Source: Legionellaceae bacterium
Lineage (GTDB): Bacteria; Pseudomonadota; Gammaproteobacteria; CBCSKA01
Reading direction: 5' to 3'
Length of the DNA: 46,994 nucleotides
Assembly: GCA_965140885.1 (NCBI GenBank)
Contig: CBCSKA010000003.1
Coordinates: forward strand, 1-46,994
Shown here: positions 3,372 to 9,279 of the stretch, piece by piece
Layout of the letters: every line of letters begins with the position of its first letter
How positions within the stretch are numbered: the stretch's first letter is position 1
The notes under the pieces: model-generated
Told to the model about the DNA's origin: nothing
Databases searched by the model: none
The model's input: the letters and a program-made list of their open reading frames with translations, nothing else
Position numbers and translations under genes: made by a program

Positions 3372-3478
3372 TATAGGACCCATCCCTATTGTAAAGGGTT
3401 TTTTTAAAGCTTTGGATAAAAGGTAAAAATTGCAGTCATATAGCTAATTCCTTGTAAATTGGATATAACTATTAATTT

Positions 3479-4566
3479 ATGACCTATTCAATTGATTTTA
3501 GAAGACATGTATTAACCATTAAAGCGGAAGAGAATTTAAGTTTTGCAGAAACCTCATTACGATTTAAGATAGGCAAATCAAGCCTTGTGCGTTGGAGCAC
3601 ATGTCTTGGGCCTAAAATAAAGCGTGATAAACCTGCAACTAAAATTAATATGGCGTTATTGAAGCAGGATATACAGAGCTATACCGATAGTTATTATCAT
3701 GAACGAGCCCAACGTTTAGGCGTTAGTAAAACGGGAATTTATTGGGCAATAAAATGTATGGGTATCAGCTATAAAAAAAACGCTACAGCATCCCAAAGCC
3801 GACGCCGAACGGCGGTTATTAATTCAACAGAATTTAACGAATGATAAGTCTTCTAATCGTAAGATAATTTACCTGGATGAAAGTGTCTTTGCTCATGACA
3901 TGCCCCGTACCCATGGCTATTCTGCCAAGGGGAAACGGTGTTATGGCAAACATAACTGGAGTGCACGTGGCCGAACAAGTGTTATTGGCGCGTTACAGGG
4001 AAATACCTTCAACACTCAGTTTGTTTGATGGAATGATTAATGGAGATATTTTTGAAGGCTGGCTAGAACAAGATTTGATCCCGAAATTGCCAGAACGCAG
4101 TGTGGTGATTATGGATAAGGCAGCTTTTCATAAAAGACCCGCAACTCAAACACTACTCGACAAAGCAGGACATACCTTAATGTTTCTGCCTCCTTATTCC
4201 CCTGTTCTTAATCCTATTTAACATACGATAGTGTCTCCATTTTTGAGACCCCTTTTGGGACATCCAAGTCCCCAAAAGGGACAAAAATTGTCGACAAGTA
4301 TGCCTGCGGCAGCCCTGGCCGTCCTGCGTACGCTCGTTATGACACGACTAGGTGTCATAACTTCACTTCCACAAATGACTTGTCGACCGTTTTGTGGGCC
4401 TTATATTTTGCCTTCGGCAAAACATCCGGCACTACGGTCTACCAGGGACTATCGGCCTCGCTCCTTCGTCGCTTCCTTGGCCGACAGCGAATGGGCACAA
4501 GCTAAAGCAATTCGAAAACAACAACACCGTTCTATTTATGATCTATTTAAATACCATTGCCCGTAA
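3479..4566 (+). pseudogene. IS630 transposase pseudogene
   Basis: HTH ORF MTYSIDFR...; A8 slippery run at 3773-3780; YLDES and MDKAAFH motifs; an extra frameshift near 4005; LNPI* where the catalytic Glu codon is TAA (4219-4221); insertion at 4226-4489; then WAQAKAIRK. Confidence 0.9.
4226..4489 (-). mobile_element. 264-bp structured non-autonomous element, copy A1
   Basis: Reverse complement of 9016-9279 with 1 mismatch. Removing it restores cat aaa tgg (H-K-W) of the IS630 transposase. Confidence 0.88.
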
Positions 4567-4612
4567 TCAATTTATAAGGAATTAGCTATAATCAATAAAA
4601 GGATGTTTTCCC

Positions 4613-4747
4613 ATGAAAAATAATACAAACAATAAATGCCACTCATATTTTGACCTTTCACAATACTATTTTGGAAAAAATAACTATGAAAAAAGTTTAA
4701 TTGCCTTGATAAAGTCGGAAGAACAAAAAGAACTAAACACAGATTAA
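4613..4747 (+). pseudogene. Short TPR-like ORF or remnant (44 aa)
   Basis: MKNNTNNKCHSYFDLSQYYFGKNNYEKSLIALIKS..., preceded by aagga. Confidence 0.25.
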
Positions 4748-5020
4748 TATCTAGATGATATATCTAATGATTTAATGGAAATTCTTTTAAAACGTTTCAT
4801 AAAAAACTGTCATGGAAATTAGATAAAAAAATAAGGAAATCAGCAATGAAAACAATACATCACTATAAAAAAAATAGCTTAAAATATCAATTGCTACCAA
4901 TGGAATTTGAAATGAAACTGAAAAAATACAAAATTTCAGTGGTAGAAGATAACCCATTAAATCAAAAAGTCGCTGGTATAACCCTAGAAATGATGGGTTA
5001 TGAGGTGGTGATTGCTAATA

Positions 5021-5940
5021 TAGTGTTTTGATTTCTAAATGATTGATTGAAAGCAATGGTCAATAGCTCCAGCAAGAGTAGTAAATTGGGATATTATTTT
5101 CTTTATCTTTGCTTTTAGGTTAGCCCAGAACTTTTCAATAGGATTAAAATCTGGCGAATAAGGAGGAAGAAATAACAAGTGACATTGAGCGTTGGTTATT
5201 AATGTTTTAGTGCGCTCAGATTTATGAAACGCAGCATTGTCCATAATAATCGTGTAGCCAGGGCCTAAAGTTGGCAGTAGGAATGAGTCCAACCAGAAAT
5301 TAAAAAGATTAGTATCACACGTCCCCTGATAGCACAAAGGCGCGATAACGTTGTTATTGTTCAAACCAGCAATGAAGCTTTCCCTCGCAAAGCGCCTTCC
5401 CGAGACTTCACCCGCAACAGGTTGACCTCGTTTACCCCAGCCGTATTCTCGGGAGATAAAGCTATCAATGCCAGACTCATCAATATATACGCACTTTTCA
5501 TCACTGTATTTTAAACGCTCTACTAGGAACAGCTGACGCTTTTCTTCACTTCGTTCCGAATAGAGCGAGGTCTTTTTTTTCGTGAAATCTTAAGTCGAGA
5601 CAATGCTCGCCACACCCCAGATTCAGTCACTCCAAAATGAGCCGCTATTTCGCTTAAATAAGCATCTGGATGATTTGCCACATATAACTGAAGTAATTCA
5701 TCTTTCAGCTTATAGGGTAAATTTGCCCTTACAGTAGCAGAAACAGTTCCTAACTCTTCTTGCCTCGTTCTCCATCTTTGTATCGACGAGCGACTTACTT
5801 TAAAGAGTTCACAGGCAGATTTAATCAATCCTCCTGAGTTGATGTAGTCTAATACTAGTTTTCTTATATCTGTTGAATGACTCATAATAAATTTTATGAG
5901 TATATCACAATATGTAAGTCATTTTAAAATCAAATTACTA
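5021..5940 (-). mobile_element. IS630-family element, apparently intact (920 bp)
   Basis: Imperfect terminal inverted repeats tagtgttttgatttctaaatga / tcattttaaaatcaaattacta; TA duplication at 5019-5020 and 5941-5942. Confidence 0.93.
5035..5885 (-). CDS. IS630 transposase (two ORFs joined by -1 frameshift)
   Basis: HTH ORF 5523-5885; A8G slippery site at ~5572-5580; the -1 frame is open through YIDESG...IMDNAAFHK...PYSPDFNPIE (complete DDE). Confidence 0.9.
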
Positions 5941-6393
5941 TAACGGAGAAGAAGCCCTTCAAAAATTTGATTCAAGTTATGATTTTATCTTAATGGATGT
6001 CGGTTTGCCCGATATGGACGGGATAGAAGTGGCGCGATGTATCCGCGAAAAAGAATTATCCCTGAATTCCCATGTCATTATTATTGCGGCAACGGCATTT
6101 GGGGATACAGTGTATGAGTCTTGTATAGCAGCAGGAATGGATGATTTTTTAACAAAACCACTTTTTGAAAAAGAGCTAGAAGCAGTACTCAATAAATACC
6201 GATAAATAAACGCTAAAAATGAGTTTAATAATGAATAATACAATAAATACACAAAAATGCCGTCAATATCTTGAAAAAGCAAAAACCTAATTTAGTAATC
6301 AGCCTTATTACAATAAGAGTTTGCTTGTTTTATTAAAGAAGTCAACGAAACTCAAAAGCAGAAAGGACAAATTAGCGTATTAGCGTAACTTAA

Positions 6394-6459
6394 AAAAATA
6401 AAACCCCTGTTTTAATTTATCTTGTAAACGGTGTGCGATTACAAGGCGTCATTATGTAA
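6394..6459 (+). pseudogene. hfq: hfq-like fragment (Sm1 motif)
   Basis: Translates KNKTPVLIYLVNGVRLQGVIM*, matching the Hfq motif (VPVSIYLVNGIKLQG). Flanked by stops. Confidence 0.6.
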
Positions 6460-6540
6460 GCACCATATATATATATTTTTAGCATAAGTTTTGGCAAAGG
6501 GTTTTATCAAAATAGCTTTTTAATGATTTTACTCTTTGCC

Positions 6541-6819
6541 TGCTGGAACACAAGGAAGCGAAGCGAGTGTGACAGCCCTCGCATCATCTGTAGGGCCGTA
6601 TGTTTTGTCGAGGTCTATGCGTTAGCATAGGCAAAGACAAAATAGAAGGCATACCGATACAGATAGAAAGTCACTGTGGTAGTTGTGTTGAACGATAAGT
6701 TCAACGCAACGAACGCAGGACTGGTGCGAGCCGCCGAAGGCACACTAGTCGCTAATTTTTTGCTCCTGAGGGGGACTTGGATGTCCCGTCAGGTTTCGTA
6801 AAAAATAGCGACTCTATCG
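6541..6819 (+). mobile_element. 279-bp divergent copy (B) of the structured element
   Basis: Shares blocks CAAGGAAGCGA, ATGTTTTG, CAAAATA.AAGGC, AAGTCA, ACGCAGGAC, GGGGACTTGGATGTCCC and terminal CTATCG with 9016-9279, in the same order. Confidence 0.82.
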
Positions 6820-6868
6820 AACTCTATTTAATTTTATATAAAAAATAGAAATTTGATTTTACTCTCGA

Positions 6869-7372
6869 TTAGGGACGCGGAGAAGCTTCTTCATAAAATG
6901 GTGCTGTTGGTTCTTGGCAATTATCTTTTGTATTATTTGTAGAATTAGAGTTATGAAAGAATTGTATCGATGAATTTTCAGTGTAATTTGGATTTTGAGA
7001 ATATTTGTTTTTTTCATATGGTACATTCACAAATTGATCCAAGGAAAAAATTTCTTTTATTTTTTTATTTTCTTCTAATATTTCATTTGTATATGTTTGA
7101 TGATTAACAATTACATCATTATTTAAGTCAATAACTTCACCTAAAATATTTGCTATGTCATTTTTTGTGAAAAATTCATTATTAGATAATAAATTTTTAA
7201 TATTTTCTATTACATTTTTAATATCTTCTATATTAGCATAAAACAAAGATTCTAAATTATTTTCATTCGTTGTGATAACATTATTAACTGTAGCTAGATT
7301 TTCTTTATTTAAACTAACATTTTCATTTTTAGATAAAGTTTTAGTATAAGTTTGAGGCATTGGAATTAGCAT
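6869..7372 (-). CDS. Hypothetical Asn-rich protein
   Basis: 167-aa ORF, aagga upstream, no recognised motif. Confidence 0.6.
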   Translation of the reverse strand: MLIPMPQTYTKTLSKNENVSLNKENLATVNNVITTNENNLESLFYANIEDIKNVIENIKNLLSNNEFFTKNDIANILGEVIDLNNDVIVNHQTYTNEILEENKKIKEIFSLDQFVNVPYEKNKYSQNPNYTENSSIQFFHNSNSTNNTKDNCQEPTAPFYEEASPRP

Positions 7373-7625
7373 AAAAAATCCTTGTATAAGCTAGCGATCA
7401 TTGAAGAGATATTATTTTTACTGTGAATTCATTTTAAAAAAGCTTTTAAAATGAATCAACTATTTTCGAATAAATTTAAAAAAGAAATGAGCGAAATACA
7501 TTTCTGAATCAATTTATAAAAGTTAAAATGAGTAAAATAATTTCTTATTTCAAATTTAGCTTATACTAATATTTTTTAAATAATTAATATATCCCTAGGG
7601 TTTATACTTATATTCATTAGATGTA

Positions 7626-8630
7626 TTACTTAAATAGCTTTTGATAGCTTTTGATATCTTCTTTATTTTTGAATGTTTGATTTGTTTCAGCTATTTTAAT
7701 AGTAAAATTATTATCAGAGTTAGTTAAGAAATAATCAAGTATGGCATCTATTTCCTTTTTATTTTCTCCTGTAATTACAATATTGTTTATTTTTGCTATT
7801 TCAATTATTTCCAAACTAGCTTTTAGAGCAAGTAAAAAATGGTTTTTTGTAGCATTAGGTAATGTTATTTTATTTTTTGATACAGAAATTAATTCTGAAC
7901 TATTTTGTTTTTCATCAGCATAGGAAATTCTATTTGTTTTAGTATCATATTGATACTGAATTTTATTATTTGTGTTATCCTTACACCATTGTTCAGCAAC
8001 TTTGGTTAAATCAATAGGTTCTGATATTTGAATAGAATTTGTTGATTTTTGAAGTGATTTGAAAAAATTACAATTTTCAAGATTTGATTTCTCTTTTGTC
8101 GTAGATTGTACTTTATTATTTTCGTCAAGTTGTAACTTATTTTTAATTAAAATATCATGAAGTATTGAATTATCAATATTAATTTCTTTTAAAATATTCT
8201 TTTTTTGTTTTTCATCATATATAAAAACGGAAGATATGTTGCCTAGCTCAGTACCATCCCTTAATTTTAAATTTTCTAATTCTATATTACAGTAAATTTG
8301 ATTTTGATCTTTGTATATTTTAATTAATACATTAAATTTTTCATCTAATTTTTTATTTGTTATAAGTGCATTTTTTATCGCTTTTATGAAAGTAGATGTT
8401 TTTATTCGGCAAGTTTTTGTAATTTCTTCCGCATTACTAATTCCAAGTTGACTATTTATTTGTTTTAGTAATTTTATTTCATCTTCTTTTGTTTTTATTT
8501 CTTTTTCATTTATCAGTAAGTTATCTATATTGATGTTTTGAATAAAACCGTTACTTGCTTCATTTGAAAACATATTTTTGATATAAATATTTTTCGAATT
8601 TTTTAAATCTTCCCTGGTTAATGTAATCAT
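7626..8630 (-). CDS. Hypothetical Lys/Asn/Ile-rich protein
   Basis: 334-aa ORF in extremely AT-rich DNA, aagga upstream. Confidence 0.7.
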   Translation of the reverse strand: MITLTREDLKNSKNIYIKNMFSNEASNGFIQNINIDNLLINEKEIKTKEDEIKLLKQINSQLGISNAEEITKTCRIKTSTFIKAIKNALITNKKLDEKFNVLIKIYKDQNQIYCNIELENLKLRDGTELGNISSVFIYDEKQKKNILKEINIDNSILHDILIKNKLQLDENNKVQSTTKEKSNLENCNFFKSLQKSTNSIQISEPIDLTKVAEQWCKDNTNNKIQYQYDTKTNRISYADEKQNSSELISVSKNKITLPNATKNHFLLALKASLEIIEIAKINNIVITGENKKEIDAILDYFLTNSDNNFTIKIAETNQTFKNKEDIKSYQKLFK

Positions 8631-9015
8631 TTTTTATCTTCCTTTTTTTTTGAATTTAGATTTTTACTATTTATTTTTTTAATTAATAAACAACAAATAG
8701 AAAGGAAAAAAAATAATTACTGCCAAAAAGAAATAGAGTCTATTTCTAAAAACTCCAAATAGCACATTGTCCTTATGTAACTATTTGTTTGAGTGAGTAA
8801 ACAGAGATAATCCTTATCATCTGTCTAGCAGTTTATTTAATTTTTATCCTTAACATCATCCTTAATGTTTGCTGCTTATAAGTTAAGTATGTAATTGATT
8901 AATTTATTTACCAGGGGGTTTTTATTCTTAAATTTGTAAGATAATAGCTATTATGTTGATACCTGGAAATTTTATGAAAATTTAATTAACAAGAGAGGGG
9001 GGGTAGGCATTCACA

Positions 9016-9279
9016 CGCTGTCGGCCAAGGAAGCGACGAAGGAGCGAGGCCGATAGTCCCTGGTAGACCGTAGTGCCGGATGTTTTGCCGAAGGCAAAAT
9101 ATAAGGCCCACAAAACGGTCGACAAGTCATTTGTGGAAGTGAAGTTATGACACCTAGTCGTGTCATAACGAGCGTACGCAGGACGGCCAGGGCTGCCGCA
9201 GGCATACTTGTCGACAATTTTTGTCCCTTTTGGGGACTTGGATGTCCCAAAAGGGGTCTCAAAAATGGCGACACTATCG
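9016..9279 (+). mobile_element. 264-bp structured non-autonomous element, copy A2
   Basis: GC-rich island in AT-rich intergenic DNA; 263/264 identical to the reverse complement of 4226-4489. Confidence 0.88.

Follow-up and report, generated by a model that had tools for sequence, protein, structure and literature searches.

How did a 264-bp block come to sit inside an IS630 transposase gene, joined to it with no base duplicated or lost, and what moved it there? The block lies in a 46,994-nucleotide stretch of contig CBCSKA010000003.1 from a Legionellaceae bacterium (GCA_965140885.1), which we refer to as the window, and occurs a second time in the same window in the opposite orientation. The genome, referred to here as G000, comprises 1.62 Mb in 158 contigs, with 33% G+C and 80% completeness. 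A sequence-only reading of the window had described the event as a precise and recent insertion, without target-site duplication, by a non-DDE mechanism into another mobile element.

The two copies of the block (copies A and B, Table 1) are identical at 263 of 264 bases, the single difference being T/G at position 4236; as written on the + strand of the window, copy A reads CGATAG...GACAGCG. Four uninterrupted IS630 copies from G000 (contigs C120, C126, C25, and C150) read ...cctattgaacata/aatgggcacaagctaaag..., i.e., ...gaacata/aatgggc... (the slash marks the joint), or, with a longer right flank, ...cctattgaacata/aatgggcacaagc... Since all four span the joint, the insert lies exactly between window positions 4225 and 4490, with zero bases duplicated and zero lost. 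The first base of the insert is C and the last is G, while both flanking bases are A, so the junction cannot shift; this excludes the one-nucleotide shift that the sequence-only reading had allowed. Its other claims about this site hold. Alignment of uninterrupted IS630 copies, which it had proposed, fixes the empty site and reveals neither duplication nor deletion. Removing the block in silico, which was expected to recover H-K-W-A-Q-A-K, restores the reading I-E-H-K-W-A-Q-A-K. The host gene is indeed part of a mobile element, identified by Pfam as an IS630 transposase (HTH_Tnp_IS630, E 9.6e-15; DDE_3, E 5.4e-15). In the window's IS630 copy, the E codon is TAA for GAA (4216-4218), which makes this copy a pseudogene.

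Table 1. Features of the window discussed in the text (positions count from the first base of the window).
Feature	Position	Strand	Basis and remarks
Element copy A, 264 bp	4226..4489	folding strand -	Shared block read on +; bounds from four empty IS630 copies; folding strand 5'-CGCUGUCGGCC...GACACUAUCG-3'
Target bases AATG beside copy A	4490..4493	+	Native to IS630 (seen in empty copies); invariant +4 G at 4493
Host IS630 copy, split, pseudogene	3439..4591	+	Pfam; extent by similarity to other copies; terminal repeats ...tatagctaattcc and ggaattagctata...
Element copy B, 264 bp	9016..9279	folding strand +	Shared block read on -; opposite orientation to copy A; target 9012-9015, invariant base 9012; right flank tgtG in element orientation
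Sister family 'B' copy, 278 bp	6542..6819	folding strand +	About 74% identity to family A over the first 113 bases

Two other insertions in G000 have empty counterparts at paralogous sites. The insertion at C4:8185-8448 has one in C19, and that at C4:9978-10244, whose host gene is probably an IS5-like transposase by ORF reading, has two, in C6 and C81; the joints are clean in both cases. Altogether, three of three events with paralogous empty sites (seven empty sites in total) occurred without duplication, and neither a duplicated target nor a flanking deletion, which would have spoken against the earlier reading, is seen at any of them. Contigs from two public DNA runs belonging to two studies (X1 and X2) also join position 4225 to 4490 (264 skipped, ends CG..CG, both = 0). 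These joins are other IS630 copies and not excision events, and the 264-base skip is the sole joint among the matches listed in the public runs, which were examined as contigs; no circle junction was among those matches, nor could contigs reveal one.

Mobile elements are nested within window positions 3439-9279, where a second, different IS630-like transposase gene (5020-6100, - strand; LPPYSPDFNPIEKFW read on -) lies between copies A and B. Elsewhere in the genome, a second IS630 copy (G000 C126:20222-20345) carries an element insertion at another place, ...CAGCG/aatGtttctgcc, and thus the IS630 family has been struck at least twice.

The block belongs to a large family in this genome. A blastn search of G000 with the 264-bp sequence returned 118 rows, including 47 full-length copies at 90-100% identity, 38 of which are at least 98% identical. 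About 60 further rows are contig-end fragments some 75 bases long; the repeat thus breaks the assembly in dozens of places. A 17-base hairpin motif of the element occurs 80 times. G000 has thus undergone a recent burst to about 100 copies, in agreement with the earlier claim of a recent event, and the spread of 47 full copies and 80 motif occurrences over 158 contigs speaks against chance and against an assembly chimera, the latter named by the same reading as a possible objection. The sister family 'B' (278 bp) has three copies in G000, and its hairpin is the same as that of family A, with compensatory changes.

Relatives of the element are spread patchily over the Gammaproteobacteria, among them Legionella, Sedimenticola, and symbionts of bivalves: the exact motif is present in six of 401 sampled genomes of the class. 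A 17-mer scan of genome contigs found at least 98 loci. About one-third of the matches listed fall in non-gammaproteobacterial phyla; these lack the rest of the element, look like chance matches, and were not accepted as members. Viral contigs gave five matches to the 17-mer and no member: four come from a single type of phage locus, and the fifth is unrelated. Among 24 copies with both ends in other genomes, 21 are short and three are long. We considered the three long versions as autonomous copies and rejected this, as each owes its length to an IS nested at a different place within the element and bounded by inverted repeats of its own. The nested ISs (in Legionella santicrucis, L087; an uncultured Legionella, L095; and an Escarpia symbiont, L073) have ends TATGGAC...GTCCATA and no duplication. 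The L087 insert is assigned to the IS110 family by Pfam scan, and those in L095 and L073 are probably of the same type, judging from their end repeats. The repeat family seems to be a landing pad for ISs of this kind.

The element itself is non-coding. No transposase is found in any copy of the family, in G000 or in relatives; comparison of the element's frames with protein families gave no match, and no copy contains a protein gene. We also considered an in-frame passenger peptide, as the frame through copy A is open for 88 codons; it matches no Pfam family, length differs from one relative to another, and insertions avoid genes, so this candidate was set aside. Rfam searches of the window at the gathering score and of the element at E 10 gave no match. 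In the literature, strings of the element's sequence appear in no relevant paper, and a MITE census includes Legionella only in totals. A similar description is that of QMITE1 and QMITE2 of Coxiella burnetii, which the available part of PMC5896051 presents as non-coding repeats that fold strongly and reach high copy numbers in a genome of the Legionellales. IS1111 targets QMITE2 (same excerpt of PMC5896051), much as the present family hosts IS110-type guests. Unlike the present element, however, QMITEs are described with terminal inverted repeats that measure 21-28 bases and direct repeats that measure 2-11, a comparison made by description and not by sequence (excerpt of PMC5896051). The present family, folded, non-coding, strand-specific, and widespread but patchy, may still be kin to the QMITEs.

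Flanks of all copies, which the earlier reading had proposed to collect, yield a target motif. The fourth base of the right flank (+4) is G in 47/47 copies in G000, against a background G frequency of 0.167, while the other flank positions are merely AT-rich, with +1 to +3 W-rich. The same base is found in another Legionellaceae genome, G041 (27/27, with A at +1 in 25/27), and in Sedimenticola (G044) and a Solemya symbiont (G043), where 25/25 rows have it, three of which repeat copies already in the set of other genomes. In that set, G is at +4 in 23 of 25 (the exceptions are L053 and L067). Because AATG is already present in the empty IS630 copies, the bases at +1 to +4 belong to the target and not to the element. 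Written on the folding strand (see below), the target is 5'-C-N-N-N/element, with C at -4, and on neither strand is the base just before the joint constant.

Frames of at least 120 codons contain 20 of the 47 insertion sites in G000 versus 1751 of 2000 random positions; insertion sites avoid genes. Several of the genic sites fall within mobile DNA of other kinds, two of them in IS630 and the others in an IS5-like element and a group II intron. A hairpin or terminator as the target was examined and rejected, since flank fold energies equal those of matched random NNNG sites (-8.6 vs -8.7 kcal/mol). At two Sedimenticola G044 loci, L229 and L213, the element has inserted into the element (CAGCG/ttcGatttcg; tct/TAAGCGAGTC), with the C-N-N-N rule obeyed.

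Conservation of secondary structure identifies one strand as the one that folds. RNAalifold was applied to 14 diverse members (about 70% identity or less to each other) aligned in each orientation. The consensus for the complementary (-) strand has 55 pairs in 10 helices, 35 of them with compensatory change, compared with 38 pairs and 21 compensatory changes for the + strand. In the named structure, 93.6% of cells are paired; shuffled controls pair at 77.6%, with 0/500 attaining the observed figure, and controls with slid partners at 35-43%. For copy A itself, the fold has a z score of -6.84 on the - strand, compared with -5.89 on the + strand. One pair of the terminal hairpin is G.U in 14/14 members, where the + strand has an A.C mismatch, and the tally over members is about 39 G.U cells vs about 10 A.C cells. 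Based on the pairing, the covariation, and the G.U evidence, we take the complementary (-) strand to be the folding strand; presumably, it is also the mobile strand. It starts 5'-CGCUG, with a hairpin two bases from the 5' end, and terminates in ...GACUCGCUUG-3' in most members and ...GACACUAUCG-3' in the window's genome. The two end hairpins differ from each other, and a multi-helix fold is conserved over the full 250-290 bases.

The orientation of the element is linked to replication. The G-rich strand is the lagging-strand template, and with replication strand judged by local GC skew as a proxy in these draft assemblies, the folding strand is the locally G-rich one in 36 of the 47 full copies in G000 (p 3.5e-4). 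The proportion is 25/32 when one copy is taken per contig and 69/86 when contig-end fragments are included, in which case some copies are perhaps counted twice; in G041, 41 of 57 flanks are on the G-rich strand (p 0.0013). By comparison, 577 of all 906 long ORFs in G000 are on the G-rich strand, and the long ORFs neighboring the element are split between the same strand (43) and the opposite one (40). The orientation thus follows the replication strand and not transcription. IS200/IS605 elements likewise are cut out and inserted as single strands on the lagging-strand template, so that their orientation mirrors replication (PMC5371812, available excerpt). Together with the lack of duplication at three of three empty-site events, this orientation bears out the non-DDE character that had been proposed.

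Which enzyme might act on such a strand? Among the 25 loci listed, no ORF is consistently beside the element. G000 has a single Y1 HUH gene (PF01797), which lies in an IS200 with ends unrelated to the element and encodes Y-V-H where ISDra2 TnpA has H-V-H. The IS200 that carries it (G000 C25:145-728, L031) sits within the end of an IS630 copy, following ...caatttat. Of five other carriers, three (G041, G042, and G043) gave no PF01797 hit, a negative weakened by incomplete assemblies; G041 holds dozens of near-identical element copies. Searches of G000 for the TnpB zinc ribbon (PF07282) and the IS110 C-terminal domain (PF02371) found neither, and the genome's IS110-family gene fragment has flanks unrelated to the element. 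The Y2 domain (PF04986) was also not found in G000, which proves little given that the same search gave no signal in any of 14 control genomes. G000 encodes one TopA, one TopB, and no extra topoisomerase gene. It carries group II introns, found by Rfam, with a protein in which Pfam detects RVT_N, RVT_1, and GIIM domains and nothing else. As the genome is 80% complete in 158 contigs, a partner gene may be unassembled.

Other recombinase genes of G000 include an apparent tyrosine recombinase, which by ORF reading lies beside a KfrA-like DNA-binding protein in a 2.2-kb unit present twice (C138:15455-17674 and C25:3912-6169), and small serine recombinase genes beside leucine-rich-repeat genes in C62, C83, and C17.

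The reading that we favor, at a probability of roughly 0.6, is that this is a non-autonomous element moved via a single-strand, non-DDE, tyrosine-linked mechanism by a trans-acting enzyme. The 264-bp element would move as one folded single strand (the - strand, 5'-CGCUG...) and would insert into the single-stranded lagging-strand template directly 3' of any 5'-C-N-N-N, with exact joins. The enzyme would cut single-stranded DNA, hold the 5' phosphate on a tyrosine, and let a foreign 3'-OH rejoin it, as does IS200/IS605 TnpA. The C kept at -4 of the left joint would make every new copy ready for re-excision. The large fold may hold both ends together and perhaps primes second-strand synthesis. 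Against this reading, a fold of this size and conservation is commoner in RNAs than at the ends of DNA transposons. As to which enzyme acts in trans, a dedicated (HUH-type) transposase that escaped detection is a tentative candidate, and the host topoisomerase I, the likeliest of the named candidates, is an equally tentative one.

The element can be compared with IS200/IS605 elements and their miniature derivatives, the PATEs, which a Y1 HUH transposase moves as single strands by 'peel and paste'. Like them, the element inserts without target duplication directly 3' of a short motif that is kept 5' on the active strand, has hairpins near both ends, and places its active strand on the lagging-strand template. 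Unlike them, it has no linked TnpA. Its target is one base (C at -4), the same in divergent subfamilies, whereas IS200/IS605 elements use 4-5 bases read by a DNA guide. Its left hairpin lies 2 bases from the end and its end hairpins are dissimilar, whereas the two hairpins of IS200/IS605 are similar. Thus, the element resembles IS200/IS605 in outline and departs from that family in transposase, target, and end architecture. The Y2 HUH elements (IS91, ISCR, and Helitron) also lack a duplication, have unlike ends, and keep a tetranucleotide beside one end; however, their tetranucleotides (GTTC, CTTG) are fully specified, unlike the CNNN of this element.

The case for topoisomerase I begins with the target base. 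In type IA enzymes, the 5' phosphate becomes bound to a tyrosine while a 3'-OH is set free, the same polarity as in HUH transposases, and this shared polarity makes an end exchange between a cut donor and a cut target chemically conceivable. According to the available part of PMC3467081, topoisomerases I from bacteria and archaea, and reverse gyrase, require C four bases 5' of the break in single-stranded DNA, which holds for all characterized bacterial topoisomerases I, and all sites cut by wild-type E. coli topoisomerase I in a 556-base single strand have C at -4. The same excerpt of PMC3467081 states that topoisomerase III differs in cleavage selectivity and that R169A in topoisomerase I changes the preference at -4 from C to A. 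The likeness to the element is the C four bases 5' of the scissile bond in a single strand (PMC3467081, same excerpt); the differences are that this is a property of an enzyme and not a mobile-element family, and that the element's other end is without C in the G000 subfamily. The topoisomerase I idea would account for the same single base in divergent subfamilies, for a base kept at the joint, and for the lack of any transposase found.

The other end of the folding strand gives a divided answer. In Sedimenticola, C is at -4 (C-U-U-A/, with the left base fixed in 11/11 copies), as it is in the Solemya symbiont and in G041 (C-U-G-C/, 26/27). The window genome's own and most active subfamily, however, has A at -4 (A-U-C-G/), which counts against topoisomerase I. 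The fuller form of the idea, in which there is no transposase at all, host topoisomerase I cuts and rejoins the strand, the 'C at -4' ruler sets both excision and landing, and the 10-helix fold is a scaffold for the ends and the enzyme, is one that we regard as doubtful. In a literature search for elements moved by topoisomerases, no such transposon was among the matches listed.

Aligned with E. coli topoisomerase I (1ecl), the host TopA (G000 C148:25112-27397, L201:892-3177, - strand) keeps R169 and has R173 replaced by Y and Y177 by F, so that just one of the three residues reported to recognize C at -4 is retained; R169 and R173 are called strictly conserved in the available part of PMC3467081. 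One element copy (C148:24511-24774) lies about 300 bp beyond the topA 3' end, a proximity within chance for 100 copies.

The principal rival explanation treats the folded strand as an RNA, either a small ribozyme or a retroelement passenger, which would be reverse-spliced or reverse-transcribed into the lagging-strand template with the help of a group II intron reverse transcriptase. The 10-helix fold, with its many compensatory changes and G.U pairs, is RNA-like, and endonuclease-less group II introns insert exactly and without duplication, show a lagging-strand bias, and prefer sites in intergenic DNA or in other mobile elements. As noted above, G000 has group II introns, and an element copy lies 92 bases upstream of one such gene. 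Contigs of one RNA library (X20) also cover the element, a coverage that DNA carry-over could produce and that does not imply transcription. Yet the Rfam library that detects the true group II introns of G000 finds nothing in the element even at E 10, the GUGYG...AY and domain V marks are absent on reading the sequence, and 264 bases is far below the size of a group II ribozyme. A group I intron fares no better: the Intron_gpI fold of Rfam gives no match, and the base before the joint is not fixed. Identical copies lie in unrelated targets that share one base, where the guide pairing of intron homing would need more, and the sites avoid genes. The orientation is unrelated to that of neighboring genes, so read-through transcription is not assured, and a promoter scan found no promoter-like site for the folding strand and one weak site on the + strand. 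Altogether, we consider an RNA route improbable.

The group II intron with the nearby element copy (G000 C61:1-1780, L233) has domains V-VI at 1704-1780, and the element lies upstream of the protein start in the same direction, so its insertion cut off the intron's 5' domains.

A second rival, which we judge very improbable, is that the element is the non-coding, bridge-RNA-bearing part of an IS110/IS1111-type element moved in trans by a DEDD recombinase. IS110-family elements make no ordinary duplication and have no inverted ends, G000 has the IS110-family gene fragment mentioned above, and three relatives elsewhere contain a nested IS of IS110 type. Those nested ISs, however, with their own inverted ends at three different positions, are guests and not the parent. 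Bridge-RNA targeting relies on roughly a dozen target bases together with a core dinucleotide that donor and target have in common, whereas the 47 copies share one flank base and the empty IS630 site does not contain the element's terminal CG as a core; the target data already contradict this reading. Finally, an ordinary DDE-type MITE with an overlooked duplication, or an assembly artifact, for which one could cite the weak inverted similarity of the ends (CGATAGTGTCGCC vs the complement of GGCCGACAGCG, by sequence reading) and the assembly breaks at many copies, is already refuted by the seven paralogous empty sites of three events without duplication, by independent public runs that hold both the filled element and the empty IS630, and by the same target rule in several other genomes.

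Of the three mechanisms that the sequence-only reading had put forward, HUH-like single-strand transposition thus remains the best fit in outline, though no HUH enzyme is tied to the element and the target rule is better matched by a type IA topoisomerase. Its IS110 alternative fails on the one-base target and the lack of a shared core dinucleotide, and intron retrohoming has little support, given no Rfam hit and the avoidance of genes.

If the favored single-strand reading is right, its meaning depends on the enzyme. A dedicated enzyme would represent a type of single-strand transposase not yet described, one whose target is a single base. If there is none, a housekeeping topoisomerase would act as a transposase, and non-autonomous elements and 'orphan' repeats would need to be reinterpreted; under the topoisomerase I reading, the element would be the first example of transposition by a topoisomerase, needing only a housekeeping enzyme of every bacterium. 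The insertion rule itself—exact, strand-specific, and set by a single C four bases from the joint—is one for which we found no record in any insertion-sequence family, and it is the same across distant Gammaproteobacteria. For the organism, the element fills roughly 1.5% of a reduced genome (estimated for some 100 copies, each of 264 bp, within 1.6 Mb). The family is also a cause of the fragmented assemblies of Legionellales-like organisms in wastewater metagenomes, and it offers a ready marker of replication direction in draft genomes.
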